From contig CM060731.1 in the NCBI GenBank assembly GCA_030704615.1, positions 3,100,001-3,164,000 on the forward strand: 64,000 bases of DNA, written 5' to 3'. How positions within the stretch are numbered: the first letter of the stretch is position 1; the number at the start of each line of letters is the position of its first letter. This DNA is from Takakia lepidozioides (lineage: Eukaryota; Plantae; Bryophyta). Of the stretch, positions 1 through 58,251 are shown piece by piece. The notes below the pieces were generated by a model that ran no database searches, was not told where the DNA came from, and worked only from the letters and a program-made list of their open reading frames with translations. A program made the position numbers and the translations under genes.

Positions 1-938
1 CCGTCTATAATAGTTTGCCAACCCCATGAAAGCTCGAACTTGGCTCACATCCGTGGGGCGTGGAATTTGTGCAATGGCCTCTACCTTAGTCTGCTGTACC
101 CCCAATCCTCCAGGATATATCATGTGACCCAGATACTCAATCTGGTGTGGAAAACTTGCACTTCCCGGATGCAACTTCAATCCGTGCGCTCTCAAGCGCT
201 CCAATACCACTTGAAGGTGTCTCTCATGCTCCTCCATTGTAACACTAAAGATGATGATGTCATCTATGTAGCACCAAGCAAAGTCCACCCCTGCTAGAAT
301 CCTATCCATGACTCTCTGAAACTCTGCCGCCACTAATATATGCAATCCTTGCCGTGCTCATTGATCCCCCAGAATGCCGTCTTCTGCTTGTCCGCCTCCT
401 TGATTGGCAACTGGTGATATCCGGATCGTAAATCCAAAGTGCTAAAGGCCTTAGCATGCCCGATGGCATCAAAGATCTCCTCTGGTGTTGGCATGGCATA
501 CTTATCGGACTTGGTCTGACGATTTACAGGCCGGTAATCACCGCACATACGTCTCTCCGTCCAATTGCCATAGACATCCTTCTTGGCTGGCATCACTGTG
601 GCTGAAGCATACTCTCCACCAGAGAGCTCCACCAAACCTGCCTCCCAGAGATCTTGAGTCCTCATCTGAATCAAAGACCTCTCCATGTCACTGTATCTAT
701 AGGGTCTCCGAAAGATTGGCGTGTCAGTGGCCAACTCAATACAGATCTCTTGACCCTTCAGTGCTCCCAAGTCCTTCAAACTGAAGGCAAAGCAATTCTT
801 GTAAGCCCTCAGGAACCGCCATATACGTCGTCTCTCTCCTCCGGTGACAATGGGTCCAATGTCAGGCTCCCAATTGTCCTCCGTAACTGCAACCTTAAGT
901 CCAGTGGGCTTAGAGGTAGAGGACGCGTCCAGTGGTTG
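1..938 (-). pseudogene. Gypsy reverse transcriptase, disrupted
   Basis: ORF 333..779 reads PIFRRPYRYS...RRMCGDYRPVNRQTKSDKYAMP...FSTLDLRSGYHQL...KTAFWG. Stop at 333-335. The expected PFGLxNAP segment is missing. A different frame then gives AEFQRVMDRIL...CYIDDIIIFS...HLQVVLERLRAHGLKLHP. Confidence 0.93.
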
Positions 939-1254
939 CTATGTTGCAACCTCTTGAGCAGTACTCCCTGCCTGCTCAATCAATGACAAAGCCTCATCCT
1001 GCCCTATCATCTCATCCTTGAGGACCTCCTCAACCCGAGAAGAATCCCCAACCTCATCCATCACAGCCGCCTTGGCGGCCAACTCCCTCTGAACCTCGAG
1101 CACCTCCCACGTGTGCCATGGATGCATGCACCCCGTGGTCCTCACATGCTCGCCCCCACTCACTGCCTGTACCGTCTTGGTAGGCAGAGAGACCATCGAG
1201 GGAAGTGTACTCCGCACTCTGCGTTGCTTAGCCAGAGCCAAGCTGATAATCCAG

Positions 1255-2190
1255 GTCAAGCAATTGAGATCCATTGCTTGCCCCAACACTTGACGACGTG
1301 ATGCCTCAGAAAGAGACGACACCGCCGTGGTACCAGTGGCAAAACCCATTGCCTGCTCACGCTCGTCAGCATTAGGCTCCACTAACTGCTGCAACTGAGC
1401 ATCCCACAGGAGGCCAGGTCCACTATCCCGGAAAGCATGCGATCCTGGGAAGCTGAGCAGTGTAGGTAATGCTGCTCGTGGTTCACCCACCTTGTTGACC
1501 ACTGCCAAAGGCGAATGGTCATCGTGTCTCACACATTGAGACTGCCTCCCTGTGTCCAGAATGCTATCCACTGTGAGATGTGCTGGCCGCTGCACCCCAC
1601 CAAATGCACGCTTGAGCAGTGTGGGTGGCATCAAGTTAGTCCACCATAGCCGTGGACAATGAGCCCGTGACCCCACTGTAGCGGCATCTAGCAACACTGC
1701 TGACCCAAGCTACGACCGGACTTGATGCACACTGGCCATCACCCTGGCCCGAGAATCGCCCATCAGTGGCACATTCTCCAAGATGTATGCTGGAGATACA
1801 GCTTGATGAAGCTGCAAGTGGCGCAAAACCCGCACCATCTCCCAAAACAGACCCAACCTCGAGTCTCGCAATCCATTGCCATGCCCGGCTGATGAATGCC
1901 CTTGGCAGGGCCAACCTGCCACTACCAGATCAATGGAGCCAACCCGCGCCAAATCCTGCGCCCCCAGCAACGAAATGTCTGCTGGCAAGGCCTGCTGATA
2001 TCCACGAATTGCAGACACCGACAACAACTCAGGATACTGTTGCACCAACTGAGCAACATGGCGAAGTGAAACGCGTCGTGCAGTCTCATCCCTCTCCACA
2101 TACAGGTAACGCCGAACTCGTACACCTGCCTGTAACACAGCAGCCAATCCGGTGCTGATCCGCCAAACAAGTCCAGAAGACAAACGCCTT
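1255..2190 (-). pseudogene. C5 cytosine DNA methyltransferase domain inside the retrotransposon pol region (1 frameshift, 1 stop)
   Basis: Motif I LLDLFGG/ISTG (frameshift ~2160); motif II YVERD; motif IV IDLVVAGWPCQGHS (PCQ 1902-1910); motif VI YILENVP (1770-1778); motif VIII LDAATVGSRAHCPRLWWTN; motif IX EREQAMGF; motif X RRQVLGQAMD. Confidence 0.92.
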
Positions 2191-2559
2191 CATCCAGATA
2201 CTGCCACACAATAGGTGTGGTGTCCAATGGAGACAACCGAGGTGGTCCTGGTGCAATCCCCGCACTCTCCTCCTCTCCTGACGGTACAAAAGCCTCCACC
2301 CAGGCTTGTTGCACCCGTCGATCAGCATCCCGCTGCAAATCCTTGCTCGTGCCCCACAATGGAGTCTGAGCAACCATGGTAGGCAACTCCGCCATTCCAT
2401 ACATGTCATCCTGCTCTCCCGGAGGTGGCACATCCTCTGAATGAGCGTTGCCCTCAAGCAACTCTCTAGGCCAACTCACTGCCGCTATGAATGCTGCTAG
2501 TATCGGCATCTTGCCTCGCTGGGCAACCGCAACTCCTCCTATGAACGTCACAGGGAGCT

Positions 2560-2990
2560 GCACACGCCGGCCCTCCCCTGACTGCCATGCAGGCCTATAG
2601 GAAGCTGACTCCTCCCAAAAATCCAGGGTGAAGCCCATGGGGTACAACATTGCCCCACCAACCAGGACATCGTATGAGACCGCGTCTGTCACAATGCCTT
2701 GGCTCGCATCATTGAGCCATCTGTAGGGTGATCCGGCCGTAGTCTGATAGCCAACTCACGCCGTATCATGCCCCGAGCCTACTCCGATCCTCCCAGAGAC
2801 GTTTGTATCTGGAAAGGACAAGGCTCCATATCTGTCTCCGTGAGGCCCAAGCTTGCAATAGCAGCTCTGCCCAGCATCAATGGCTAAGCTCTTGAGTCCA
2901 ACAAGACCCGCAGTGGCCGGTACCTCTTGCCTGCCAGTCCACTCAAATAGAAAATGCCATCCTGGTTGTCTAACATGACAACTCCAGGTG
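2560..2990 (-). pseudogene. Retroviral-type aspartic protease, disrupted
   Basis: RVLLDSRA* (likely from LLDSGAQ; stop 2884-2886), continuing PLMLG...PFQIQTSLGG, then YDVLVGG...FTLDF in ORF 1922..2692. Confidence 0.8.
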
Positions 2991-5118
2991 TCACCATGGC
3001 GCGCTCAATGGCTGGCCTGGCTGGCAGCTCCAGCAACCTGGCAGCTGCAGCTTGCCATGGCGCCGCCGTGGCAGTCTTGACCCTCAAATCCGAGGATCCC
3101 TCCGGCACTACACCTCCCACTATCTCCGCAGAAGATGAAGTAACCTCCCCACTCTCACAGAGTGTAGCTGCCAGCCTGAACACCTCAGCTGGTTTTACCC
3201 CCGGCGTCGCAATCATGGTAGCCGAGAACAATGGATCCTGGCACACAGATGTGGCCGCTCCTAGCAGCACACTAGCTGCCATAGCCTTGGCAACACTAGG
3301 TAGTGGTGCTACCCGTGTAGCTCTCCCCAATGGCATAGTATCCTCCGCCTCGGTAACCGTCGGGCGAGAACTTGGTGCCATAGATGGCGTCGACACTGTC
3401 TCTGCCAATGTGAATGACTGAGGAAGCCTAGCCTGACGGCTTGCCTCCCCACGCTGTGGATCCAACTCCACCTCTGCACCTCGTGGCTCAGGAACTCGTG
3501 CTGCTCCTCGAGTCACGGTTGCAGCAGACTCCACCTGCACTAGTGGTAGTGCTGCTCCACACATGAATCCCATGCCTCCCATATCTCCTCCCTCAAGAGT
3601 AGGAGGTGGACCATCCGGCCTTAGAGCCGGTACCACCTGAGCTGTAGCCATGGCAGCGAGCCTCTGCTCTAGCTGCTGAAGCCGGTTGGCCATGCCTTGG
3701 TCAACACCCTGACCTCCGCGTCCTTGGCCACGTTGAGCTTGCCCTTGGCCTGCACCTCGTGGCTGGCCACCTCGTCCTCTCTGGGCTGCTCCACCTCGCC
3801 CCCGGCCACCATTGTTCCCTTGGAACTGGCCTGGGCGCAACTCAGGATGCAAACCATAACACTGGGCCTCTCCATGCCCGTGCTTGCCACAATGCCCACA
3901 CTGCAACTGTGCAGGCTGTGCATGTGCCGACCCTTTGCCTCCCTCTGGGCAATCCTTCTTGACATGGGGTCCTCCACATGTCCAGCACACCACATCCGCC
4001 CGTTGTTGGCCAGCAAATGAAGGGAGAGACCCCTGCATCTGAGGTCCTCTCTGCCCTTCCCTGAGCTTCACCTGAGCCCCCTTGTTGCCTTGAGCACGTT
4101 GAGGTAGTGGTTGGCTAGGAGCACCACTACCCCGTGGCGTCTCCTTAGCAAATCCCACCATGACCACTTGTTCCTCCACCATGTTGAGCTCTATCCGCTC
4201 TGCCAGCAAAAACACATTTGCTAAGGTGGGTTGGGCCGCTTGTAGGAGAGTTGCACCCCGCACCCTTCTCCTCAGCTCCTTGTCCAATATCCCATACCAA
4301 AATTGGACTGCCTGAGCTTCCGTAACCCCTTGGGTTACATTTATCAAGCGCCTCATGCGAGTGAAAGCCTCCCTCAAGCTCTCGGTCGGCTTCCGTTGGA
4401 ACTCTTGCAAGCTCCGCAACTTCTCTGTCCTCACCCCTTGGTAGTTCCCTCTCAACTCTTCGAAGAACTCCACAACAGGGTTGAAGACAGGCACGGGTGC
4501 TAGTGCTGGTGCGGTAGTGGCTTGGGTGGACGTCGTAGCTACTGTACCACCAGTCCCACTAGTCCCACTGCTACTTGCTGAAGCTGCCGGTGCAGCGGCA
4601 GGTGTAGCCACTGCCCTCGTGGCTCTAGTGCCCCTAGTGATGGAGACATAGTCGGGTGACCAGTACATCCTCCACTCCTCGATCTCAACCTCATGCCCCC
4701 GCCTGAACTCATGGTAATCATCCATAGGCGGCCCCTCAAGGTGCTGAAACAGCCCCTTCCATGCCATGAAAGGCGTAAATAGTTGTGGATTGCGCATTTG
4801 CTGCAAATCACACCAACTATCAAACTCTTGGATAAAATCATCCAACTCGATGGTGCCCACCGCCCCAGAGTACCTTCGTGGCCCCTTGGTAGCTCCATAC
4901 ATCTCCTCCATTGTGTCCCACAACAATGGCAAAGAAACAACTTGCACCGCCGGTATGAGTCCTCCTGATTCACAATCCGAATCAGAACCTTCCGTAGAAG
5001 ACACAGGAGGTGAAGGTGGCCTAAACCGCACACCTCGTCTCGTGTACCCACTAGTATCGCTAGTGCTCGAACCGGCACTGTCCCCAGCAACTAGTGGCAT
5101 CTCCGTGTTGACACTCAA
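2884..5118 (-). CDS. Retrotransposon Gag ORF with two zinc knuckles, running into the protease
   Basis: 744 uninterrupted codons. Capsid-like segment (LQEFQRKPTESLREAFTRMRRL...FWYGILDKELRRRV), CWTCGGPHVKKDC and CGHCGKHGHGEAQC knuckles, RGG-rich tract. True start codon uncertain. Confidence 0.85.
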   Translation of the reverse strand: MSVNTEMPLVAGDSAGSSTSDTSGYTRRGVRFRPPSPPVSSTEGSDSDCESGGLIPAVQVVSLPLLWDTMEEMYGATKGPRRYSGAVGTIELDDFIQEFDSWCDLQQMRNPQLFTPFMAWKGLFQHLEGPPMDDYHEFRRGHEVEIEEWRMYWSPDYVSITRGTRATRAVATPAAAPAASASSSGTSGTGGTVATTSTQATTAPALAPVPVFNPVVEFFEELRGNYQGVRTEKLRSLQEFQRKPTESLREAFTRMRRLINVTQGVTEAQAVQFWYGILDKELRRRVRGATLLQAAQPTLANVFLLAERIELNMVEEQVVMVGFAKETPRGSGAPSQPLPQRAQGNKGAQVKLREGQRGPQMQGSLPSFAGQQRADVVCWTCGGPHVKKDCPEGGKGSAHAQPAQLQCGHCGKHGHGEAQCYGLHPELRPGQFQGNNGGRGRGGAAQRGRGGQPRGAGQGQAQRGQGRGGQGVDQGMANRLQQLEQRLAAMATAQVVPALRPDGPPPTLEGGDMGGMGFMCGAALPLVQVESAATVTRGAARVPEPRGAEVELDPQRGEASRQARLPQSFTLAETVSTPSMAPSSRPTVTEAEDTMPLGRATRVAPLPSVAKAMAASVLLGAATSVCQDPLFSATMIATPGVKPAEVFRLAATLCESGEVTSSSAEIVGGVVPEGSSDLRVKTATAAPWQAAAARLLELPARPAIERAMVTPGVVMLDNQDGIFYLSGLAGKRYRPLRVLLDSRA

Positions 5119-5849
5119 CCGGTCATGAACATGTCCCTAACCCCCTCTCCACAAGGTAACCGGGTAGAGAACCTGTTGCGGCTTATGGTTTGGAATACTA
5201 AGTTCCTAACATAGCCTACACATGTACCTGCATCCACCGCAAACACTCCTATGGTTGGCTGGTCATCACCTCCAACCTCACCACAGGAGAAACAATGATG
5301 GTCTGGCTAGTCATCACCCCAGCCTCACCATCGACAGCATACTCTAGGACTGGCCGGTGATCAAATCCGGACCAATCACCTATAAAAACAAGCGCCCACA
5401 CAAAACTAGCATGGCGCACAGTCAAGCATGCAGGTATGGAGGGGATCCAAACACAAGAAATCAGAACGACAACTCCCCCACACCAAAAACAACTCCACAG
5501 TGTTGCTCCTGCAATGACACCCCAGCCCAAACCCGGACTGACTCTTGCCTCCACCTACGGAAAGGTCTTGGCCTAATGAGAGGGTGGAAACTACGAGGAA
5601 GAGAAGCTAAAGCAATGCCTAACCCCAGCATGCCCTCATCCCAACACTCTTCCTCTTCTCTCTTCCCTCACTTGCATGACCATGGGAATATCATGAAGAT
5701 ACTCCTCAAACCGCCCTCCACGAGCTTCAAAATTCGGCCTTCAAGACCACATGCCAGTCCTTAGGCAGTCCACCAGTGCCTCCATGAGTCAGCACAGGCC
5801 GTCCACAGGTCAACACGGGCCACCACAGACTAGCATAGGCCCACACAGC

Positions 5850-6525
5850 TCACTGGTCACAGCCGTCACAGTCCCACAGGCCACTGGGCACAGCCTGTCA
5901 CAGCCCGTCACAGCCCCACAGGCCACAGGGCACAGCCCGCCACAGCTTGTCACAGCCCCGCACAGCCCGTCACAGCTTGCCACAGCCTGTCACAGCCCGT
6001 CACAGCCCCACAGGCCACTGGGCACAGCTTGTCACAGCCCCTCAGAGCCCGTCACAGCTCGCCACAGCCTATCACAGCCCCAAAGGCCTCAGGCACGGCC
6101 TGTCACAGCCCCTCACAGCCCCAAAGGCCACGGGCACAGCCTGTCACAGCCCGTCACAGCCCCACAGGCCACTGGGCACAGCCTGTCACAGCCCCGCACA
6201 GCCCGTCACAGCCCCACAGGCCACTGGGCATAGCCTGTCACAGCCCCTCACAGCTCGTCACAGCTCGCCACAGCCCCTCACAGCCCCAAAGGCCTCAGGC
6301 ACGGCATGACACAGCCCCTCACAGCCCCTCACAGCCCCAAAGGCCTCAGGCACGGCCTGTCACAGCCCCTCACAGCCCCAAAGGCCACGGGCACAGCCTG
6401 TCACAGCCCCAAAAGGCCACCGGCACAGCCCCTCACAGCCCGTCACAGCCCCAAAGGCCACTGGTGCAGCCCGTGACAGCCCCTCACAGCCCTGAAGGCC
6501 ACCGGCACAGCCCGGCACAGCCCCA
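5850..6525. repeat. Tandem array of ~10-nt unit (gt/ct)cacagccc with 40-50-nt higher-order blocks, upstream of gag
   Basis: Dozens of cacagccc(g/c)t units interleaved with cacaggccactggg / caaaggcc spacers. Confidence 0.92.
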
Positions 6526-7250: not shown

Positions 7251-7891
7251 CGCATTCCCAAGTCCAGTTCTCAGCTTTGCCACCAAAGCCACTATAACCT
7301 GCTCTTGACTGGTCCTCTTCCCAATCGAGCTTGCTCATGCATGTACACAGTCTGAAACCATCAAGGTGCTCTGAAATTACCTGCAGCATGGTGCTTTCAT
7401 CTCTGAAGCTGAAGATCGAATGCCAAGGTCTACCACCTCGTAACCCACATCGCCTCCGCTTCTAACAACCAAGAGCTCCACGGTGCTCCTTGCATAATAA
7501 CTTGGTTTCTCTCATTCTCAAGCAAAAACCACAAGTGCTACAACTAACTCGTATCTGGCACTCACAGATACGAGCTCATCTTTCTCGAGTGATAAAGAAG
7601 AAGAATACAAGCACAAGCTCACAAAGCTCACAAAGCTGAAGCATAAACTCATGCATATATAACCTCATCACTCAAATACAAGTCAAGCCAAGTGCACCCC
7701 ACGCCATGGGGAATCCACACTACGGCGCCATAGCTAGGCGCGGTGAGGCTCAACTCGAGAAAGATGAGCCTCCCGCGCTTGCCGTGAAGATAACCACTCC
7801 AGGGCCTGAATCTGCCTTGACCCCTGGGTTGACACTTGGGCCAATCCCAAATATCAATATGTAAAAGCTAGCTATTTCCTAGCTAGTTTCA

Positions 7892-8566
7892 CACTAGTGG
7901 TAAAATAACTTGACATTTTCTATTTTGAATGTCTTGTGGTTGCTAGTATGCAAGAGGGGTCCATTCTGTTTTTATATCAGAATTTCACCATATAATGAAG
8001 AATTTAAATCATTTAATCTATTTTTATTTTATATAACATTATTAAATTAAACATTAATATACCATTTAATAAAAAATTCCAAGCTGCTATCCCCTGTTTT
8101 CAAAAATAAAATATAAATTTAAGAATTTAAAATTACAAATATAACTATTAAATTATTTTCAGAGACATTCTTGATGACACATGACATAAACCCTGCCATA
8201 TATGCTAGTCATATATTATGTCTAAGTACCACATGTCACATCTGAAGTGCAACATGTGTCGTGACGTGTCGCTTGCGCAGTGGTGCACGTGTTCCTCTAA
8301 AGCCTCTCCATGTAGGCAACGCTCATCAGACAATATAGTCATATAGTTAGTCGTATGTAAGTCATAGAATTGTAACTACATCACTCTCTTATGCATGACT
8401 CCATGTGCCACGCACGCAGTCACGGCTATGACTTGCAAAATGCAGTCCTAAAGACTAGTCGCTATGACAGGGCTTTTTTCACTACAGAGTGATGTAGTCA
8501 TGAACGCATATAGGACTGAAAAAATAGTCATATGTGCAGTCATAAAAACGCTCATCTGTTGTAGTG
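7892..8566. mobile_element. CACTA (En/Spm)-like non-autonomous element or element end
   Basis: Right end ...TTGTAGTG (CACTACAA on minus) is preceded by ~10 subterminal AGTCATA/TATGACT-type repeats (8207-8545). CACTAGTGGTAAAA lies at 7892. The 3-bp flanks do not match (TCA vs TTG). Confidence 0.55.
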
Positions 8567-9361
8567 TTGGGATCATCCCGAGGCTGATGGCCTGAGAGAG
8601 AGGGTTGTACAAACAGTCAAGCGAGGCTTGCGCAAGTATGGCTTGCAGAAAGGACACTTAGGAGATTGGGACCTTCAGCTACCTTGGTTGGCCATGGGCT
8701 ACAGGTTTAGCAAACAAGCATCACTTGCCTCGTTCTTGCCTTATTTCCTTCTCTCTGGCCGAGAGCCAGATTTGCATGCATCTATTTGCAGGGAAACTGC
8801 AGTAGTTCTCAACCTTGATGATCCGGATGTGTGGACACAAGTATGTGCCTAGCGGGCAGAGTTGTTCAAAGAGAGTCATGCCTATGGCTTTTGAGAACCT
8901 TGCTATTGCCCAACACCGAGACACATTGAGGTACGCCACTATACGTGGAGGGGGATATCGGCCAGGTGTTCGGCGTTTCCACCCTGGGGACTATGTGTAT
9001 CTGCAGCAGACAGCGCCTACGATTTTGGATGTCACAGCAGGGCGTGTGATTCTAAGGGTCCGGGAGGTGTTGCCTTCAGGAGTGTTGATTCTGGAGGGTC
9101 GAGATGGCATGGTATGGAAGGACCATGTGCGCAATTATGCGCCATGTCACCTTTCACATGTGGATGGGAGGATAGATCCCAACTTTGCAGTGGTACCTGC
9201 AGGGTTGCGTTGCATGCTATGTAGGCATACTGGTGGGCGCCGCGACCATGTTGGTGTGTGACAAATGCTCAAGGGGGTGGCACATGGGATGCTTGACACC
9301 GCCACTTGAGGAGGTTCCTAGTGGAAAATGGTTGTGTCCACGGTGCCTTGGACATAGATAG
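8567..9361 (+). pseudogene. Gypsy integrase C-terminal half followed by a PHD finger
   Basis: DHPEADGLRERVVQTVKRGLRK...WDLQLPWLAMGYRFS...PYFLLSGREP...FHPGDYVYL. Then CMLC...MLVCDKCSRGWHMGCLTPPLEEVPSGKWLCPRC* (9211-9361). One stop at 8850 and small frameshifts. Confidence 0.9.
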
Positions 9362-9607
9362 TGGGCATGACAATGGTGGAATTGACAAGTGATCCAAGGT
9401 CTAGCTGATGGGAGCTCAACGCCATGGATACTTAATTGAAGATCATGGATTGCAGGAAGGCGAGTAACGATGGGGCTACTTTTGCACCCGGCCTCTTGAT
9501 CTATTGACTTTAGATACTGGGACATGTGCGATTGAAGACCAAGTGATGATTTTATTGAGATGGATACTTGTCAGCTATCCGGTGTTAGAGGGACCTAATC
9601 ACCAGCT

Positions 9608-9617
9608 AAGGGGGCGA
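9608..9617 (+). other. Candidate polypurine tract, followed by TG at 9619 as possible 3' LTR start
   Basis: aagggggcga-t-TGTGGC about 250 bp after the integrase-PHD stop. LTR end not identified. Confidence 0.45.
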
Positions 9618-12584
9618 TTGTGGCATAGCTTTCTAGGATTGTGTGCTTAGAATGTATGGTGGACAACGATGTATGTTGTGGCACGATGCTTAGGTGCACG
9701 ACAACACTAATGGCATGGCATACATTCTAGCGATGAAGACTAGTTTAAGTTGTAGTGCATTGTCAACCACATCATCAACGTATATATTTTTGGAGGTTGC
9801 CTGAACTTTTGGAATTTTTTTTTTTTTGTTTTTTTTTTTCAGAAAACCGAAAGTGTTGCATCTTTTGGCAACAGGCTAGGCTCTGACTAATATATATTTG
9901 TGCAATTGCAATATCGATACAAGCATAAGCTTGGATCCCTTCCCTACAAGATTTGAAATCCATTACAGTCCCGCATTCCTCCTATAAATGACGACCATGT
10001 ATTGGAAGAAGCAAATGCGACCCTTCTATATTCTAGGTCTTGTTACGAAGTATGAAATGAGAAGAACAATACCTCTCCACTCACTTTTCCCTTAATTCCT
10101 TCTTGTCTTCTTGTTGTTTGAACATCATGTGGCTTGTTTTTGTCAAGCGGGGTTTTCAGACCCTCGAGTCACCTTCAGATCCGTCGTCGAACCAGTCGGG
10201 AATGTACGTGACGTTCGAGGTATGCAATTTCTTTGCCTTATGTGGCTTTGCCTTATGACTATACTAAGGGAAAAGTTTGACCAAATAGGAAGTAGTCTAG
10301 TATAAATAGAGTTTATCATTTATACTCTTTTCTTTTGATTCTCAGATTACAACGTCAACTTTGGTGACCTTCACAGCTTCAAGGATAGTGAAACTCGATA
10401 AATTATAAATTGCTAATGTTGCTTATTTTTCAAAGGCATAAAGACAGATACAATTTGAACTGCAATCAACAAACACCTCAATCACAATTATGATTATTGA
10501 ATAACATCATTATCTCTGTATATGAAAGAGATGGATAGAAGCATTTCTAAAATAAAAGGCTAACAATGTACATATTTAGTCCGACCCTACCATAATGAAT
10601 CACACCTTCGTTCCAGATTAGTGGAATCAACTAAATTGACATCCATACTATTCGTCTCAACAATCTCATGGCGAACATTGTGATCTCAAAAGATAAAAGA
10701 AGCTTATTTTGTGAGATACTTTCATGCCTACAAAACATGGATTAATTCTGGCAAGAAGCCCATCTATCCCCAAACTATTAGTCAAATGAAATGTAAGGCA
10801 ACCAAGCCATTGCTAACCGGCACCAGGCAGCTACACAAGCCCAAAGACTTCTACATTGTTGATTGTTGTCATGAGCCATTCTCTAAATTGCATCAAGTAA
10901 AACATTTGACCTCAACTTCATGGTGAACTCAAGGAGTGTCTTTTACAGCTTGACATAAGTCTAAATTTTGACTTTAAAAAATACATGTTTATTGAGCTCA
11001 TTTCAAGACCTACAATTGTACTACATCATTGCTTTCATGTTGCTTAGAAATGTGGTGAAATGCAATGCATGTGTTGTTGCAAAGTAGTCAATTTGAAGGC
11101 ATTTGTTTAGACTATGACATGAGCCAAATAGTGAAAAGTTGAGGCTAAACTGAGAATCAGTCAAACCATTTGCATCACACGCTTCAACTACGCAATTGTG
11201 AAAGTGAATTCATGGAGGTTTCAATCTCCAAGCCCGGTCACAATTTATGCTTATGTGAAAACATACAAGATTACAACAGTGCTCATTTAATGAGAATGAA
11301 GCAATCCTCGATTATATATATATAAAAATAAAATAAAATATAAGAAAGATGTTGCCGACTCTATCCGAAAAAAAATGTGAGCCTTCATAAATAGCTACCA
11401 TGTTGATTACCTTGATTAACAAGAGCAAATGAGGATGTTCATATTTGAGGTGTCACTCATTTAGCTGGACTGAAAATGACTCCTCAAAATCTAAACATGT
11501 GAGTGTTATTGCAAGACCTAGTCTCTACTTCGAAAGTCGAATGATTCTTTGGGGATCGTTCCTGAGTATGTAGATGTTTTTAGCGTTGTTCCCTGAAGTT
11601 GTCGTTAACAGTGCGGAGCAACACAAAGCTCTAGGACTAATAGATAGTGAGACAACCAATTTGTAGCCAAGTGGTGGACAATGCTCTTTGTGAGCCCCAA
11701 GAGGTACCATGTAAGGTATTATCAGTATTCTTGTCCACTCGGCAAATCCTTTCTTGTCTCTCCAGTAGTATGAGGATAATAATTGGATGAGGATAACTAT
11801 ATCTGGAGACCTTAATAGTTGTACGCACATTCATTCACATGGCTTTGAGGCCTGTGTCAGTTGAAATAATCTCAACGTCAACATATGCAAATGGCTTGAC
11901 ATACCCGTGGCGATAGGATAATCCTCATACACCTACATAGTTTCCTATATTGAATTGTAACTAATTGTGGATGAGTGCCACATCTATTTTGGGTTATCTC
12001 ATCTCTTTCTTTCGCCTTCCCTCTCCCGCCCCTTCTATCCATGTGTGTGGGTGTGTCCCCGGAAGGCTGAAGACAAGTTCAATGATACAAAAGTGAAAAG
12101 AATAGATTAAGAAAAAGTGTGGACTCCTGCCAAAGCAAGCACTAAATTATGGTATTATGGTATTCTAATTAGGGTAGAAGCACTCTTCATGGCGCAGGAA
12201 GTTGGATAAATATGATAACTTTTTGTGCTTTTAACTAATGAGATCATGTAATACCTTAACGGAAAGCTCTTAAGACAAGACAACTTTTCTTAGTTGAGAG
12301 TTAATGAGATTCTGATTCTATCTGCTATTAAAAGTGGATAGAAGTAGAGGATGTCAATGTCAGCCTCTGGCGCACCTTGTTCCTATCATGACTCATTCAT
12401 ATCTTTTCTACCTGAGATGGTAACAAAGAAAAAAACCAAAAATACCATTGGAAAGCGCTTAATGTGGCCCATCTTTTTGTAGTTGGAGCAATTTTCATTA
12501 GAGGACATCTACCTATAGTAATTTAAGGGTAAAACAAGTGGGCCATTATCACGCACAAGATATATTGCTCCTTTGGTACCTTGG

Positions 12585-35599: not shown

Positions 35600-37500
35600 T
35601 GTTGCTTGCTTCACCAGTACTCCCCACACAAACAACTGGAGGTTCTTGATGACACGGTGCTCCATTCGGTGTGACAATCAGCCCATAAGCAAACGCCAGC
35701 TTCTCACTGTGCTGACATTTTGCTCCTCTTCCAAATCATCCAACATAAAGCATGTTCTAGGTACATAGTACATACCCTGACTTCTTCATCTGCCCCGACA
35801 ATCTATCTAACTCAGCATGGATGTCCTCAATTTGTGGATGGAATTTGTCTTTCAGAGCAAATGTATGCACCTGGTTCCCAACCTCGATACAGCTGCTCCC
35901 CAGCTCCTTTCTGATTCCTCTGTCCTCCATCCTTTTCCTCACCTTTGCTTTATCTTCCCCACTCCCAGCAGCACCATAGATGTTTGATAGCAGCAAATAA
36001 GCTCCAGCATATTGTGGATCACTCTTGAGAATGCTCTTTGCTGCACCTTCTGCTCACTCCATGTCACCATGGATTCTGCAGGCACTGAGCGAGCCCCCCA
36101 CATCAGAGCACCCGGTTCAATCGGCAGTCTATTAATGAATTTCTCTGCATCGTCCAATTTCCCAATTTCCCTGCCCCGCCAAGAAGGTCCACAATGCAGC
36201 CAAAATGCTCCAAGGTTGGTGCGAGGTCATGATCTCGACACATGGAATCAAACTACTGACGCCCTTCATCCACCAGGCCCACATGGCTACATGCAGAGAG
36301 GAGAGATATAAAGGTGATACTGTTGGGCTTCAAGCCTTCTTTTTGCATTTGTTCAAATAATTGCAGGGCTTCCCTACCACACCCATGCTGAGCATATCCT
36401 GCAATCATGGCACTCCATGAGACCACATTCCGCTTACTCATGTTGTCAAACACTTGGCGTGCATCCTTCATGTTGCCGCATCTGGCATACATACCAGCAA
36501 GGGCAGTCTCCAGGATGATATCTGAAGCAATTCCAGCTTCAATGATGTCAGCATGGATCTCTTTCCCCTTTCCTACGGTTCCTAGGCTGGCACACACATT
36601 GAGAATGTGAATGTAGCCCTGTCAGCTGTCAGCTGTTCCTGTTGAACTCGCTCATAGATTTCAAAAGCCTCCCTGCCACAACCATGGTGAACGTATCCTG
36701 TGATCATCATGTTCCATGAAACCACATTTCGTTGAGCCATATTGTCAAACACACGCCTTGCATCCTTGATGCTCCCGCATTTTGCATACAGCCAACAAGA
36801 GCATTATTCAAAGTAATATATGACACGTTTCCAGCTTTGACGATGTTGGGATGTACCTCTTTTCCTATTTCGAGGCCTCCTAGGCTGGAGCATGCATAGA
36901 GAACACAAATGAACGTGATCCTGTCAGGCATCACCCATTTGCGTTGCATTTGCTTATACAGCTCCAAAGCCACCCTACCACACCCACGCTGAGCATATCC
37001 TGTAATCACGGCATTCCATGATACCACACCTTGTTGAGCCATGTCGTAAAACACTTGACGGGCATCCTGCGTGCTCCCGCATTTGCAAGACATGTCGAAA
37101 AGGGTATTCTCCAAAATGATATAAGATCCTAGTCCAGCCTTGATCCTGTGGGCATGGACTCCTTTGCCGGGCGCCTCCTTTCTCCACGTCTCCGAGGGTG
37201 GTGTGACGACTAGTGTTGTGCTTGCTGGAGATACGGCGCTCATCAACAGTTGGCACGATAGGTGAGAGAGGGGAAAGTGCACAAGCATAAATGAAAATAA
37301 ACTTGACCCTTCCTGGCAGTGCACCTGTTCATACAAGTCAAAAGTTTCCCCAACACACCCCTGCTGAGTATAAGTAACAAGCGATCATCGCACTCCATGA
37401 GACCACATTTTGTAGAGCCATATTGTTGAACACTTGATGTGCATCCACATCCTCCTGCATTTGGCATACATGATGGGGATATTCTCCAAATCAATAGAAG
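35600..37500 (-). pseudogene. PLS-class PPR-E-DYW pseudogene
   Basis: PPR fragments in several frames (MYARCGNMKDARQVFDNMSKRNVVSWSAMIAGYAQHG; LLSACSHVGLVDEG), E domain, GSSCIEVGNQVHTF, HSEKLAFAYGL (~35710), multiple frameshifts and a lost DYW terminus. Strongly similar to 53253-55475. Confidence 0.88.
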
Positions 37501-41052: not shown

Positions 41053-42651
41053 TGTTATGGCCTATGAGAGTCTCAAGGCTTTTGCGGAAGCCAAGGGATG
41101 GACTGCTTCTATCCTTGCAGGTTACTTTTCAGGAGCACTATAGTAGAGAGTGAAGCTTCATTATTCCCAACTGACATGTACATCACGCCCAAGGAAGACA
41201 TGAGCGTTGATGGTATGGTCTCTGCATTGCAATGGAGGCCTCTCTTCCAGTGCAGGGTAGATTTCTAAGTCGCTTTCAAAGAGCAAGCTCAGTCTGCCAG
41301 CAGTGCAATCAATATTCATTTGGAATTCACTCTTCAATAATAAATCAAGGAGTGTGAGATTGTTGTGCAAACCTTTCCTGACCAGCTGTCCCATATCTGA
41401 GCCCTGATGGTCTTCTGATCCACACCAATGGTACGTCTCAGAGATTCAACACCACGGGTTGCTTTGGACTCCAGGCTGATTTCATTCAGTGAAAACCTCG
41501 TCAGCAGCTGCGACTTTCCCACTGCTGAATCGCCAATGAGCACCACCTTGAACACATAGTCTATCTTGTGGTCTTACTCGGTATATGTTATGGCCTATGA
41601 GAGTCTCAAGGCTTTTGCGGAAGCCAAGGGATGGACTGCTTCTATCCTTGCAGGTTACTTTTCAGGAGCACTATAGTAGAGAGTGAAGCTTCATTATTCC
41701 CAACTGACATGTACATCACGCCCAAGGAAGACATGAGCGTTGATGGTATGGTCTCTGCATTGCAATGGAGGCCTCTCTTCCAGTGCAGGGTAGATTTCTA
41801 AGTCGCTTTCAAAGAGCAAGCTCAGTCTGCCAGCAGTGCAATCAATATTCATTTGGAATTCACTCTTCAATAATAAATCAAGGAGTGTGAGATTGTTGTG
41901 CAAACCTTTCCTGACCAGCTGTCCCATATCTGAGCCCTGATGGTCTTCTGATCCACACCAATGGTACGTCTCAGAGATTCAACACCACGGGTTGCTTTGG
42001 ACTCCAGGCTGATTTCATTCAGTGAAAACCTCGTCAGCAGCTGCGACTTTCCCACTGCTGAATCGCCAATGAGCACCACCTTGAACACATAGTCTATCTT
42101 GTGGTCTTACTCGGTATATGTTATGGCCTATGAGAGTCTCAAGGCTTTTGCGGAAGCCAAGGGATGGACTGCTTCTATCCTTGCAGGTTACTTTTCAGGA
42201 GCACTATAGTAGAGAGTGAAGCTTCATTATTCCCAACTGACATGTACATCACGCCCAAGGAAGACATGAGCGTTGATGGTATGGTCTCTGCATTGCAATG
42301 GAGGCCTCTCTTCCAGTGCAGGGTAGATTTCTAAGTCGCTTTCAAAGAGCAAGCTCAGTCTGCCAGCAGTGCAATCAATATTCATTTGGAATTCACTCTT
42401 CAATAATAAATCAAGGAGTGTGAGATTGTTGTGCAAACCTTTCCTGACCAGCTGTCCCATATCTGAGCCCTGATGGTCTTCTGATCCACACCAATGGTAC
42501 GTCTCAGAGATTCAACACCACGGGTTGCTTTGGACTCCAGGCTGATTTCATTCAGTGAAAACCTCGTCAGCAGCTGCGACTTTCCCACTGCTGAATCGCC
42601 AATGAGCACCACCTTGAACACATAGTCTATCTTGTGGTCTTACTCGGTATA
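41053..42651. repeat. Three apparently identical tandem 533-bp units, each containing most of RabA exon 1 plus intron start
   Basis: Units start at 41053, 41586 and 42119. The ORF track repeats identically with period 533. Confidence 0.97.
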
Positions 42652-43260
42652 CCCATTCGACATCGTTCCCAGTGCGTTTGTTTATAGACAAATTCCACAT
42701 GTAAGACTAAAAGGGGAACCACAGCAGATGCCAATCTACACTCCGTATTACACATCTTCAGGCAACTTCCCCTCCAATGACTTGCAAAGCTTGACTGATA
42801 TACCAACCAGTTAAGAACTCCTTGCCTCTGAGATCTGACGAGAGAATTCCGTGTACCCTCAGATGATGATAAGCGAGTGAGCTGACATGATCCACAGTGA
42901 AGAACTTAGATTTTAATCTCTGCAATTCCGCTGCAGCGTTGCAGTGCTGAAGCCCTTTGGAACGAAGTCAAATCCCTGGAAAAACTCAGCTCTATCTGAA
43001 AAACAGATACAAATTAGAGTGCAAAATCACCAGCCTGAATCCGGAGGCAACTCGAGGACCCGGCTTAAGTTCCCGTCCGTTTCTTGCAATGCTCTCCCCA
43101 CAGCCGCTTGCAAAGACACTAGGATCGATTAGCCTGGCCAACCAAAGAATGCACTCGCGAAAACATGATTATGCTCATCTCTCTCGTTCTCCGACGACAC
43201 TTCAATAAATGGCGTATCGAAGGGGGAGGACAGAAAAATTACCTATATGGTGGTAGTTTG
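41190..43260 (-). pseudogene. Partial RabA pseudogene (5' flank, exon 1 and intron start duplicated from ~48845-49895)
   Basis: [17 protein letters not shown] present. TAC>TAA stop (Y8) near 42640. A 2-nt deletion destroys WDTAGQE. No exon 2. 42652-43260 aligns with 49241-49895. Confidence 0.92.
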
Positions 43261-48126: not shown

Positions 48127-49253
48127 TCAATTTGTACAACATCCTCGTTTCTTAACTCCAACAACATCATCTTTCGGGTCAGTAAGATTGATTTTTGTGC
48201 CAAGTAATAGTGGAGAGGTTCCATTTCCTTGGCTTTCATCCGCAATTAGGGCCTTTTTGCTGACTACCCTGTAGATTTCTGACAACACCGTGTAAAATGC
48301 AGCCTCAACGTTAATGGACTCCATAGCAGAAGTCTCCAGGAAGAACAGCTGTTCTTTCTCTGCATACTCTTTGGCATCATCTGTTGGAACGGCCCGTAGA
48401 TTGCCGAGGTCAGACTTGTTACCAATAAGCATGATAACTATATTGGAGTCAGCATGAGCCCTCAGCTCCTCCAGCCACCTTTGCACATGATCATATGATT
48501 GCCTCTTTGTTATATCATATACCAACATGGCACCTACAGCGCCTCTGTAGTAGGCACTTGTGACAGCCCTGTATCTGTGCATCCACAATACACAAAGACA
48601 TACATCAATACAAATACTGCTTCACTTGAGCAGCTGCACCCGGAAGCCATAAATGGTCCATGCAATCGGCCTTCAGCCGATCACTAAAGTACCCCACACA
48701 ACATGCAACATAAAAGACCATGCCAGAAGCTCCATTGAGTGTCCATTGCAGAAGCTCATATGAGGTTAAACCCTAGCTGCTCCTTACAGTCTCAAACTCT
48801 TATGTGAACCTTGTACTTCGAAAATGAGAAGGAAGGGTTTACCCTGCTCAAGAAAAGATGCGCGTTGACGTTATGGTCTCTGCATGCAGTGGCCGCTCTC
48901 TTTCAGTGGCAGGGTAGATCTCTAAATCGCTTTGAAAGAGCAGGCTCAGGCCAGCAGTGCAATCAATATTCATTTGTAATTCACTCTTCAATAATAAATC
49001 AAAGAGTGTGAGAGAGTTGTGCAAACCTTTCCTGACCAGCTGTGTCCCATATCTGAGCCTTGATGGTCTTCTGATCCACAACAATGGTACGCGTTTGAAA
49101 TTCAACACCAATGGTTGCTTTGGACTCCAGGCTGAATTCATTCCGTGAAAACCTCGCCAGCAGCTGCGACTTTCCCACTGCTGAATCGCCAATGAGCACC
49201 ACCTTGAACACATAGTCTATCTTGTGGTCGTACTCGTTATACCCATTCGACAT
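48127..49253 (-). CDS. RABA4: Rab11/RabA small GTPase (RabA4-like), 2 exons
   Basis: Exons 49253-49027 and 48574-48127. [15 protein letters not shown]|[26 protein letters not shown]-terminal CCTN prenylation motif. Confidence 0.95.
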
Positions 49254-50936
49254 CGTTCCAGTGCGGTTGTGTATGGACAAATAACCCTTGATATATCACC
49301 AACACTGATTCCACATGTAAGACTAAAAGGGGAACCACAGCAGATACCAACCTATTTTGCACGTCTTCAGGCAACTTCCCCTTCAGTGACTTGAAAAACC
49401 TCTTCACTGTGACTGATACCAACCAGTTAAGAGTTCCTTGCCTCTGAGACCTGATGAGAGAATTCCGTGTGCCCTCAGAAGATGAAAAGCGAGTGAGCTG
49501 ATATGATCCACAGAGAACTTAGACTTAAATCTATTCAATTCCTCTGCACCGATGCAGTCAGTGCTGAAGCCCTGTGGAACAAATTCAAATCAACTCTATC
49601 TGAAAAACAGATACAACTCGGGACCCAGCTGAGTTTCCCTTCCGTTTCTTGCAAAGCTCTTCCCACAGCCGCTTGACACTAGGATCGATTAGCCTGGCCG
49701 ACCCAATAATGCGATCGCGAAAACAGGATTATACTGGGGCAGCCGTAAGAGTGACAGCAGTGTGACGAAGCCCTCCTCGGTGTGCACAGAGCTCCACGTT
49801 CCCGGTCATCTCTCTCGTTCTCCGCCAGTTCTCTACCAATGAATGAATGGCATATCAGGGGAAGGAGAGCAACATTACCTATATGGTGGTAATGTATGAT
49901 CTTGCTTATGGTATCCTTTACGATTCCAGGCTCCACACCCAAATTGGTTCGGAAGCTTCGCTAGGAGTATAGTCTCGGATATGGTGGAGCCCAAGATTGA
50001 TTATCCGCACGGGACATCGAGCCTGATGTGCGCTGGTTCGATTGTGGGTGTTGGGGCTGTTGCAGTGTTTGAACTTTGAACGTGGAAAAATGTTAATGCT
50101 GCATTCAGGTGTTCACAACCCGTAAAGCATGAGTACCAGTGCTCTGGAGGCTCTTCCAAGAGACTCTGTCAAAGGGTTGTGTGGCATGGAGTTTGCCTTC
50201 ATTCTTTTCCTGGATCCAACATGGCAGCTTTATTTGAAATTCACATGCTGCATACACCACAAGGAATAAATTACCAACGCAATCTGAATTGACCTGCTTG
50301 ACGTGCAAATTCTTTCTTCCTGCAACTATTACTTGAGAGAGAGAGAGGTGGGTTGCCATCTGTGTGCAGTGGGCCTGAGGGAATGCTGAGTCTAAACATC
50401 TCTTTTCTCAACTTTTGCTGCATCTGGTCTCACACACAGTGAACTGAAGGCATTCCAGTCACCAACGACGCACCTTTTCTCCCTCCAAAGAGGGGACGCT
50501 GCAACAAAGTCCCTGGAACCAATTTGACTCACACAGACCCCGCACTACATTTCCTGATAAAAAGTTTGCAGATCCTAAAACCTAAATTGCAAGATCTAAA
50601 ACTCCACAGAACACATCAAACCTGCACGCTTTTCACAACGACTGTAACCAAAGAAATCCATTGCACACCTCAGGTCTTTAATCTCCGATCCAGCTATCGA
50701 GTAGTTGAATCCTCCCAAAGTTCCATAACCTTATACACCTCTTACAAAAATTATCTACAGCTTTCAATCAATACGTGAGACCATCTACAGAAACAATTTA
50801 TCTACATCACTGAATGATAGATCAACAATATGGACCTGAACCAGACTCCACCTCATCTGCCCACACCTCAAGTGCGTAGCAGATGATCATAATTTCACCT
50901 TCAATGTGCAAGCGAAAGTAGAACTCCTGAGAGCTT

Positions 50937-53252: not shown

Positions 53253-55476
53253 TCACCAGTAATCCCCACAAGAACAAATTCCATCATGGAAGTAGTGAAA
53301 GCGGTTGGCATCCCGCACAATAACTGCTCGCCCAACAATCTTGGAGATGAACTTGGTCGCTGTGTGGCAGTCACCACATACCCACAGGTTCTTGATGACA
53401 CGGATGGGTGTCCCAGTGGGTGTGCTGATCAGCCCAAAAGCAATTGCCAGCTTCTCACTGTGGTAGCAGAGAGAGAATTCCTTTTGCTCCTCCTCAATAT
53501 CGTGCAATACAAAGCGTGTGTCAGGCACATACCCAGCCTCCTTCATCTGCCCAGAGAGTCTCTCAAGCTCAGCATGGATTTCCGTAATTTGTGGATGCAA
53601 TTTGTCATCTACAACGAAGGTATGCACCCAATTTTCCATCTCAATGCAGCTGCACCCTGCCTCTTTTCTGACACCTCTGTCTTCCATCATTTTCCTCACC
53701 ATTGCTTGATCATCCCACCTGCCAGCTGCTGCATAGATATTGGATAGCAACACATAAGTTGTGGCATCCAGTGGATGCCACTTGAGAAGGCACTTCGCTG
53801 TACGTTCTGCTCGCTCCACATCGCCGTGAATTCTGCAGGCACCAAGCAATGCTCCCCACACAGCGGCACCTGGTTCTATAGGCATTTTCTCAATGAAATC
53901 CTTTGCATCATCCAATCGCCCTCCACGGCCAAGTAGGTCCACCATGCAGCCAAAATGCTCTGCTGTAGGAGTGAGGCCATGATCTCGACTCATGGAATGA
54001 AAGTAGTGATGGCCTTCATCTACCAGGCCCACATGGCTACATGCAGAGAGAAGACATACAAAGGTGATTCCATCTGGCTTAAAGCCTTCCTGCTGCATTT
54101 GTTCAAATACTTGGACAGCCTCCCTGCCACACCCTTGCTGTCCATATCCTGCTATCATCGGACTCCATGAGACCACATCTCGTTTAGACATATTGGCAAA
54201 CACCTGATGCGCATCCTTCATGCTCCCACATTTGGCGTACATGTAAACAAGGGAATTCTCCAAATTAATATATGATGCAACACCAGCTGTGATGATGTCA
54301 GCATGGACCTCTTTGCCCTTTTCCAGAGCAGCTAGGCTGGCACATGCATTGAGAGCACAAATGAATGTAACCTTGTCGGGCATCACCCCTTCCAGTGTCA
54401 TCTGCTCATACATCTCCAAAGCCTCCCTACCAGACCCATGCTGTACATATCCTGCGATCATGGCACTCCATGAGACCACATTCCGTTTGGCCATATTGTC
54501 GAAAATTTGACGCGCATCCTTCATGCTCCCACATTTGGCATACATATCAGCAAGGGCAGTTTCTAAAATGGTATCGGGTGCAATTCCAGCTTTCATGATG
54601 TCAGTATGGACTTGTTTGCCTTTCTCCAGGGCTGCTAGGCCGGCACACGCGTTGAGAATGCAAATGTACGTCACCTTGTTGGGCATCACTCCTTCCTGTC
54701 TCATTCGCTCATATGTCTCGAAAGCCTCCCTACCACACCCATGCTGAGCATATCCAGTGATCATAGAGCTCCATGCAAACACATTTCGTTCAGCCATATT
54801 GTCGAACACTCGACGAGCATCATTCATGCTACCGCATTTGGCATACATGTCAGCCAGGGCAGTCTCAAGAATGATATCTGGCGCAATTCCAGCTTTGATG
54901 ATGTCAGCATGGACCTTTTTGCCCTTTTCCAGGGCGCCTAGGCTCGCACATGCATTGAGAACACAGGTGAATGTGACCTTGTCGGGTGTCAAACCTTCCC
55001 TTATCATTTGCTCATACATCTGGAAAGCCTCCCTACCACACCCATGCTTCGCATATGCTGATATCAATATCGTCCAAGTAGAGACAGTGCGTTCAAGCAT
55101 CTTGCCAAACAGCCGATGTGCATCTACCACACTCCCGCACTTGGAGTACATGCTTACAAGGGTGTTAAGGAGAAAAACGTTTGGCTTGAATCCACTTTTG
55201 ATGATGTGGTTGTGCACCTGCTTTCCCTCTGCTAGGCCTTTAACTTTGATGCACTCCTGCAAGAGACAGAGATAGGTCTCAGAATCTGTCGAAATCCCTT
55301 GTTGGTTCAATATGTGCAGCGCCTCTGTCAGTTGTCCTGTCTTACATAGTGTCCGCACATCCCCACTAGCACAAGAAGACTTCTTGTTGATTCCTTGTTT
55401 TGCTCCTCTTTCAAAAGAGGTTGTGATAGTGAAGGTGCCTGGTTCAAACAACTGTGCATGATTCAACCCTGCCATC
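53253..55476 (-). CDS. PLS-class PPR-E-DYW organellar C-to-U RNA editing factor (large terminal exon)
   Basis: 740 open codons; repeated P-L-S triplets; E domain; PG-box variant EAGCSCIE; HSEKLA...CGDCH deaminase signature; terminal CSCGDYW. Confidence 0.96.
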
Positions 55477-57905: not shown

Positions 57906-57968
57906 CAATTTCTAACTCCTCCACTTGTGGACTCAAGGAAGTATGTGTTGAGACGGTGGGCCCATCTA

Positions 57969-58195
57969 GGGAATTCCAAAAAGGCCTTGATGTGAAATGC
58001 ATGGCAATTCACTTGATCACCCCCCTAAAAGTGCGCAATTCAATTGAACTAACCCTAATTTGCAATTCAATTGAATTGTCGGCACACGATTCAATTGAAT
58101 TGCAAATTAGGGTTAGTTCAATTGAATTGCGCTCTTTTAAGGGGTGATCAAGTGAATTGCGATGCATTTCACATCAAGGCCTTTTTGGAATTCCC
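57969..58195. mobile_element. Fold-back MITE (227 bp, ~108-bp inverted arms, TA flanks)
   Basis: TA-GGGAATTCCAAAAAGGCCTTGATGTGAAATGCAT...ATGCATTTCACATCAAGGCCTTTTTGGAATTCCC-TA; near-perfect palindrome. Confidence 0.9.
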
Positions 58196-58251
58196 TACCC
58201 CATCACCCGAGCAGCCTCATTACGACGAGGCCACACAGAATTCTGAGCCCC

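Follow-up and report, generated by a model that had tools for sequence, protein, structure and literature searches.

The question raised by this locus is why a transposon would carry a silencing enzyme of its own. The locus lies in a stretch of 64,000 nucleotides from the moss Takakia lepidozioides (assembly GCA_030704615.1, contig CM060731.1, positions 3,100,001 to 3,164,000 of the forward strand), referred to below as the window. Window positions 1-5136 hold, on the minus strand and in this order, Gag, a protease (PR), a C5 cytosine DNA methyltransferase (DNMT) and a reverse transcriptase (RT), and belong to a decayed Ty3/gypsy copy whose upstream extent reaches 7915. A gypsy-encoded DNMT3 has so far been described from one alga, with its function left open. 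In our reading, to which we give a probability of roughly 0.58, the copy belongs to a high-copy bryophyte Ty3/gypsy family whose first open reading frame (ORF1, Gag-PR-DNMT) ends at a conserved stop, likely read through at a low rate, before RT, RNase H (RH), integrase (INT) and a PHD finger; many DNMT molecules would thus enter each particle and likely methylate the new cDNA before insertion. The family also occurs in Marchantia polymorpha, and since methylation mutants of this model plant exist, the question becomes testable.

The order of domains, including two zinc knuckles in Gag, had been proposed in an initial annotation made from the letters alone, and Pfam searches bear it out. All coding features of the element are on the minus strand. 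The Gag region (2989-5136; Retrotrans_gag, E 0.0045) has its knuckles at 3987-3949 and 3900-3859. It is followed by a broken aspartic protease (2576-2988), recognized by tblastn with a Marchantia homologue and represented in a relative, locus L033, by an Asp_protease_2 match, and then by the DNMT3-like C5 cytosine methyltransferase domain (1215-2188; DNA_methylase, E 1.9e-12). A variable linker (942-1214) closes ORF1; database proteins from Marchantia, Calypogeia and others terminate 47-181 residues past the DNMT. The in-frame stop and its context, TAG CAA CCA, occupy 933-941, and the start of the second frame (ORF2) occupies 1-938, where RT (875-1; RVT_1, E 2.5e-12; YIDD at 270-259) continues past the window edge. 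Three internal stops, at least three frameshifts and the change of the motif VIII arginine mark the window copy as dead. Its lesions comprise stops at 2884-2886 and 2779-2781 and a frameshift near 2695 in the protease; a frameshift near 2159, a stop at 1710-1712 and the motif VIII change at 1658 in the DNMT; and a frameshift near 330-340 with small deletions near 146-163 in the RT. Many contigs from the same organism disagree with the window at 163, 2159, 2695, 2781 and 1658, and the lesions at these positions are therefore private to this copy.

The DNMT is a regular part of the family. Read depth was taken from four runs (two samples of the same organism) and is summed depth, not copy number. 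In run X1 it amounted to 1.05-1.18 million in the DNMT bins and 0.83-0.98 million in the Gag and RT bins, against 59-130 in the unique flank; in all four runs the element stood three to four orders of magnitude above the flank and was level over Gag, DNMT and RT. A one-off capture of the DNMT is excluded by this high and flat depth. Read joints skipping the DNMT had 20-22 letters on one side and low depth, and were taken as noise. Among metagenome loci, 88 were found and 80 kept for architecture analysis; most of the 80 have the order GAG-PR-DNMT-RT-RH-INT-PHD or part of it, and the majority, here called the peat-moss type, group with named Sphagnum proteins at full support. The statement of the initial annotation that the DNMT belongs to the element, and is no nested insert, thus holds across the family. 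It had also named algal contamination or a misjoin as possible sources of error. Among the contigs listed, no single one spans element and flank, which would suit such an origin; the very high depth seen across several samples from one organism, the nearest named proteins (land-plant at 73% identity, vs 39% for Klebsormidium) and the recurrence of the architecture in dozens of loci leave capture, contamination or misjoin with a negligible probability.

The domain itself is intronless and unpermuted, DNMT3-like, with its catalytic residues kept in the family. In the window, motif I (LLDLFGG, 2179-2159), PCQ (1910-1902), ENV (1778-1770) and the region of motifs IX/X can be recognized as annotated, and the arginine of motif VIII, almost invariant elsewhere, is replaced by cysteine. 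All 24 solved structures matched by the window DNMT in phmmer are DNMT3A or DNMT3B (best E 2.4e-6). For the open-framed relative L001, 68% identical in the DNMT, the predicted fold (pLDDT 93.7) matches DNMT3A with a Foldseek E of 2.7e-19 and a TM of 0.72. Short weak matches of the motif IV region in 17 viral contig loci were not used as DNMT relatives. Across 29 DNMT sequences, little or no variation occurs in the columns of the catalytic Cys, Glu and Arg. The ratio of non-synonymous to synonymous substitution (dN/dS) between families is 0.10-0.18 for unsaturated pairs, some pairs being saturated, and 0.136 for the pair L033/L035 (dS 0.25); among decayed peat-moss-type copies it is 0.44-0.58, like that of their RT (0.34-0.47). 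In the window organism, a selected subset of listed differences contains six synonymous and three non-synonymous polymorphic DNMT sites and, among window-private sites, one synonymous and nine non-synonymous (p 0.02 between the two classes). As judged from these substitution patterns, purifying selection acts on the DNMT of the family, and neutral evolution, which the initial annotation had raised as an objection, does not describe it.

The position of the stop determines how much DNMT would be made. It had been proposed that DNMT and RT, sharing one frame across the TAG at 939-941, were parts of one polyprotein. The common frame stands (with translation as X at two TAG codons), but the polyprotein is not supported as proposed, as the stop is conserved, is no lesion, and ends ORF1. 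Junctions were scored in 46 rows (45 loci and the window) with a DNMT followed by an RT start, which gave 37 distinct contexts. In 29/37 the stop closest to the start of RT is a TAG or TAA with CAR after it, located 17-23 codons before the RT match; exact CAR-YYA accounts for 5/37 and CAA CCC or CCT for 24/37, the latter from one family and not independent. The other eight contexts are L026 (TAG TAG CCA), L034 (no stop) and six that carry frameshifts or are strongly decayed. In tobamoviruses, UAG-CAR-YYA serves as the type I readthrough motif (PMC3542737); the motif occurs with an open frame beyond it in the window, L001, L033, L035 and L051, and also in L031 and L068. In families near synonymous saturation the exact CARYYA is spelled CAACCA, CAGTTA or CAATCA, encoding QP, QL or QS; because the motif is kept while spelling and residues vary, the constraint looks to act on the RNA. 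As controls, 103 lesion stops were scored, with CARYYA after none of them; of the 1386 TAGs in the window, 5 have it. Locus L033 has 1369 open codons (protease, DNMT), the single stop TAG CAG TTA, and 1047 open codons (RT, RH, integrase, PHD). In the window organism, both contigs with a complete difference listing (X12 record 9 and X7 record 18) keep 933-941 unchanged. Marchantia Mp4g09160 and the Calypogeia proteins end 74-76 residues past the DNMT. The DNMT runs into RT unbroken in the deeper relatives P0252, P0279 and P0024 and in four Closterium models, while the bryophyte proteins end, so the stop was apparently acquired within the clade to which the bryophyte elements belong (RT support 100). 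In chlorophyte-type loci the readthrough motif was found before RT in none of the five with a stop, and three others are open to the contig start. Since the stop is conserved and terminates ORF1, most DNMT would come from Gag-PR-DNMT and not from Pol. The methyltransferase is likely made at capsid level, with RT-integrase-PHD reached by predicted readthrough, and a large dose of methyltransferase per particle is expected from this arrangement.

ORF2 could also be reached by splicing, an internal promoter or reinitiation, and the DNMT would still end ORF1 at the level of Gag. Several observations weigh in this direction and against readthrough. RNA structure after the stop was not significant in any of four junctions (z -0.9 to -1.6). 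The peat-moss type departs from the motif by one base (CAA CCC) and has an ATG three codons past the stop, and early ATGs follow the stop in L026 and L035 as well, so that the three together offer an ATG at codon +3 to +5, where reinitiation is possible. Computed gene models such as MARPO_0091s0058 fuse the DNMT to RT. In-frame stops of this kind are removed by splicing in Ogre elements. In yeast, the junction of Candida Tca2 on its own failed to direct readthrough, and a minor promoter lay within it (PMC2194720). On the other side, the first ATG after the stop is 117 codons on in L033 and L051 and 85 codons on in the window, in all cases inside RT; the frame is preserved across the stop; outside the peat-moss type the six bases past it vary only within CARYYA; and one contig from a presumed-RNA run spans the stop ungapped, a weak point as the contig may be DNA. 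On these grounds we regard the other routes to ORF2 as improbable and retain readthrough.

What a DNMT made in such amounts does is suggested by its location, dose and conserved catalytic columns: it most likely methylates cDNA inside the particle. Two results weigh against this function. The element shows no extra CpG depletion (0.52, compared with 0.42-0.63 in host genes), and the single Klebsormidium domain assayed in yeast gave no methylation, a result that its authors called inconclusive (PMC5890265). Both would be expected if the DNMT were kept for another role: it could bind cDNA or RNA inside the particle, or shield them, or it could act on host DNA and methylate the insertion site or its surroundings. 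Coating would also suit capsid-level amounts. The near invariance of the catalytic columns noted above and the complete DNMT3 fold that is predicted to be retained argue for an active enzyme, and the related retrotransposon DNMT3s of dinoflagellates methylate CG de novo (PMC5890265). Another role is thus considered unlikely, though it deserves some weight. As the moss host DNMT3b sets de novo CG and CHH marks (PMC6453930), vs CG for the dinoflagellate enzymes, the methylation context of the element DNMT cannot be predicted.

The terminal repeats of the family are split into two parts, A and B. The order A-coding-polypurine tract-B-A-B is complete in L047 and L029, and its 3′ part is present in L017, L070 and L004. 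The outer ends are TG and CA, and the 4-bp target duplications are perfect in four of the five two-ended elements, while the fifth has a single mismatch. At the inner B|A joint, CA, two bases and TG follow one another inside near-palindromic arms, and its motif CGACA-NN-TGTCA is also found in L033, L076 and 3 of the 12 chlorophyte-type loci. Chlorophyte-type L055, L061 and L062 carry a CGACA-GC-TGTCA junction; self-BLAST did not find terminal repeats in the chlorophyte-type loci, probably through contig collapse there. In the window, the 5′ repeat A (7590-7915, minus strand, 326 bp, TGTCA...TTTATCA) resembles a long terminal repeat (LTR) and was delimited by read depth, which falls between bins 7601-8000 and 8001-8400 in four of four runs, and by loose contig ends that represent the B|A junction. 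In run X2, 22 contigs extend past 7915 and read the B end with a GC spacer, and the family of the window organism therefore has the same B|A joint. For this family, A-coding-B-A-B rests on the 5′ A and the B|A junction in reads, the 3′ end of the element being outside the window. A tRNA primer site was not found after A. The predicted primer-binding site immediately after A (7574-7589, minus strand) is not tRNA-like and lacks TGG, and a stretch within A (7753-7769, minus strand; 17-nt perfect complement) would be the RNA 5′ end and self-primer. A self-priming complement of 15-17 nt after A occurs in three families, including the peat-moss type and L033, with differing letters. A tandem-repeat array (5879-6523; families D2 and D6 in repeat finding) lies in the 5′ leader.

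This anatomy suggests that B plus A is the true LTR and that the element, once inserted, represents a circle cut open at B|A. In L033 ORF2 and in P0258, PHD, rve and Integrase_H2C2 were matched, with no chromodomain and no Phage_integrase match. The repeats predict a DDE integrase acting on a circle junction, for which no accepted natural LTR-element example was found. Some evidence speaks for a different origin and weighs against this reading. The A2|B2 joint is precise in four loci, which suggests that it was copied from RNA, and the circle-junction model of retroviruses was overturned, linear DNA being the proven precursor (PMC11054761). A-coding-B-A-B could accordingly arise from linear cDNA through extra template switches, the internal CA-NN-TG serving as an end-rebuilding template that is never cut. 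Cutting a two-junction circle at its other junction is expected to give A-B-A-coding-B, and this form is absent among the 23 loci with A/B matches. The self-priming complement is also uneven in the peat-moss type, with 17 nt in 3/13, 10-11 nt in 5/13 and none in 5/13, a further point against the proposed cycle. The linear route does not readily account for the two-base spacer and near-palindromic arms kept across very distant families, and foamy virus integrase cleaves palindromic circle junctions (PMC1180852). One-junction circles would account for the A-coding-B forms whose duplications are intact (L020, L023), although recombination between B1 and B2 also explains them. The linear route is accordingly a real possibility, if on balance a doubtful one, and the opened circle is kept as the preferred reading.

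Put together, the proposed cycle would run as follows. Transcription would begin inside A, and the RNA 5′ end would pair with the site after A and prime reverse transcription without tRNA. The protease would release the DNMT within the particle, and the cDNA would become a circle, or have abutted ends, with the B|A junction CA-NN-TG. The integrase would cut after CA on both strands, leaving two-base 5′ overhangs as in processed retroviral ends, and insertion with a 4-bp duplication would yield A-coding-B-A-B. The PHD finger of the integrase likely recognizes the tail of histone H3 and so directs insertion. On arrival the new copy would already be methylated, and would either resemble old host DNA or dampen itself. 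A wider proposal can be built on this cycle, which we consider unlikely in its entirety: a Ty3/gypsy clade spread across green plants may have been missed by LTR-finding pipelines owing to its split repeats, and may integrate via a circle junction, a route proposed and then abandoned for retroviruses; its bryophyte members would have moved a DNMT3 before a leaky stop, loading particles so that each new copy lands methylated, and with thousands of copies the clade would perhaps add a further source of de novo methylation to the genomes of mosses and liverworts. Because the repeats are split, standard LTR finders would in any case miss or misclassify an abundant bryophyte repeat family.

Named homologues of the element come from Marchantia polymorpha, M. 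paleacea, Riccia sorocarpa, Calypogeia fissa, four Sphagnum species, Monoraphidium, Klebsormidium, Closterium, Scenedesmus and Cymbomonas (nine of the 20 representatives looked up carry a species name). Many gene models called DNA methyltransferase in Marchantia, Sphagnum and Calypogeia are elements of this DNMT-bearing family. The initial annotation had suggested a streptophyte lineage that persisted in a land plant. The land-plant host is confirmed, and the PR-DNMT order is common to the Klebsormidium and Closterium elements (knuckle-PR-DNMT in the Klebsormidium protein GAQ93235). Persistence of such a lineage is supported only in part: the same DNMT occurs in chlorophytes at another place in the element, deep nodes of the DNMT tree including Klebsormidium are weak, and the closeness of Marchantia and Sphagnum may reflect transfer. 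In the RT tree, which is without a Klebsormidium RT, Closterium falls outside the bryophyte clade (support 80), and deep splits separate the families of the window, L001, L026 and L033 inside one clade (support 100). RTs of Marchantia and the peat-moss type are 85% identical (L016/L018 vs P0007) and grouped at 100%, closer than two moss families (76%), and may thus represent a candidate liverwort-moss horizontal transfer. The bryophyte distribution could reflect transfer among wet-habitat plants rather than persistence since an algal ancestor; the matches listed include no name from Physcomitrium, Ceratodon, hornworts or vascular plants. The deep splits within one clade and the PR-DNMT order shared by Closterium and Klebsormidium favor persistence, old parallel lineages would yield the same pattern, and most matches lack a species name. 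Transfer as the general explanation is plausible but held at less than even odds.

A second order, RT-RH-DNMT-INT-PHD, is present in or fits about 15 of the 80 loci. It was observed in L048, L052-L058, L061-L063 and L066 and in P0258, P0034 and P0364, and is the commonest order among 50%-cluster representatives, being named in Scenedesmus and Monoraphidium, with DNMT-INT in Cymbomonas. A third order is found in one protein, P0381 (2531 aa), which combines a weak Dam match (E 0.009) with DNMT, protease, RT, RH and integrase, and may be similar to an EpiLTR. The EpiLTRs described from Cymbomonas and Euglena (bioRxiv 10.64898/2026.05.21.726589) likewise combine a cytosine methyltransferase with a chromatin reader in an LTR element; in contrast, their DNMTs are DNMT4-related and stand alongside DAM and a chromodomain, and the preprint separates them from a streptophyte Gypsy-DNMT3.

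The closest described system is KnitGypsy-Dnmt3 of Klebsormidium nitens (de Mendoza et al., 2018; PMC5890265). Both have the Ty3/gypsy order PR-RT-RH-IN with a DDE integrase (in the window up to RT, and as a whole in L033 and many loci), a DNMT3-like domain that has no introns, is not permuted and keeps its catalytic residues, purifying selection (Ka/Ks below 0.2 in that element) and DIRS-like A-coding-B-A-B repeats. They differ in that the moss family lives in a land plant at very high copy number with 39% DNMT identity, and in that the DNMT of KnitGypsy-Dnmt3 lies in the Pol ORF with RT, whereas here a conserved readthrough-type stop separates the two. The text of that paper, Fig. 4c and the main supplement aside, does not mention a stop, PHD finger, self-priming, CA-NN-TG junction or duplication length. 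Because the DNMT does not share an ORF with RT here and the deep nodes that would join the two in one clade are weak, the family is set beside KnitGypsy-Dnmt3 and not within it. No report of a land-plant Gypsy-DNMT3 was found in a literature search, although subscription papers, Repbase entries, figures and supplements outside it could hold one. Gypsy-DNMT3 is named in PMC5890265 and, as a passing mention of streptophytes, in the above preprint, in the parts available for neither of them for land plants; PMC12344493 likewise says streptophytes, with no match in its single supplement, and the available text of PMC11982613, PMC12513842 and PMC10952607 does not mention it.

Single features have parallels elsewhere. 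One in-frame UAG with CAR-YYA stands between structural and replicative frames in type I tobamovirus readthrough (PMC3542737), and an in-frame stop stands at this place in SIRE1, Tca2 and MuLV (PMC2194720); the stop of the moss element, for which readthrough is predicted, differs by following protease and methyltransferase, which puts the enzyme on the high-expression side. Self-priming chromoviruses of the Tf1/Sushi and Tcn1 kind (PMC6317226) also lack a tRNA primer site and have a post-repeat sequence complementary to a stretch within the repeat, but the moss family has a PHD finger instead of a chromodomain, split repeats and a DNMT. The A...B-A-B layout, with an internal end-to-end junction as would-be insertion site, recalls the split direct repeats of tyrosine-recombinase elements (PAT, SymbioDIRS-Dnmt3). 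Ngaro split direct repeats and IS3-family circle junctions offer a comparable end-to-end junction. Unlike DIRS-order elements, the moss family has a DDE integrase (rve), TG...CA ends and 4-bp duplications, and no tyrosine recombinase was found.

Next to the element lies the 3′ end of a second related one (8571-9703, plus strand), with the integrase C-terminus, a PHD finger (9176-9358; Pfam E 2.6e-11), a polypurine tract (9604-9614) and a repeat B ending GCACGACA. It shows about 70% DNA identity to the integrase of loci such as L047, represents a second family of the same clade, and has a single B repeat with no A-B behind it. Its PHD finger, like that of L033 ORF2 (990-1034), has Gly two places before the zinc-binding His. 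PHD fingers that read H3K4me3 have Trp at this place; by this rule, the change suggests a putative reader of unmethylated H3K4. The interval between both retrotransposon pieces, 8059-8500, holds another element, which is moderately repeated and has an inverted repeat of 32 nt (8375-8498).

The window has further features. An intronless BTB gene near the element encodes a protein with 60-64% identity to liverwort and moss proteins and 53-56% to those of vascular plants, and in a tree of 29 rows it is sister to all other moss-side rows (support 99/98). On the evidence of this one gene, the host is likely a moss that branched off early. Two PPR genes (35650-37450 and 53256-55470), presumably of the DYW type from their translated motifs, lie 17.7 kb apart, the first apparently broken and the second open. 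A 533-bp tandem triplication of near 100% identity (41053-42669 and 48850-49735) comprises part of a Rab-like gene region (48130-49700), and is either a recent duplication or an assembly artefact. Two nested near-perfect inverted repeats (57967-58197, arms of 57-59 nt), similar to a miniature inverted-repeat transposable element, are located just before an NADH dehydrogenase-like gene.

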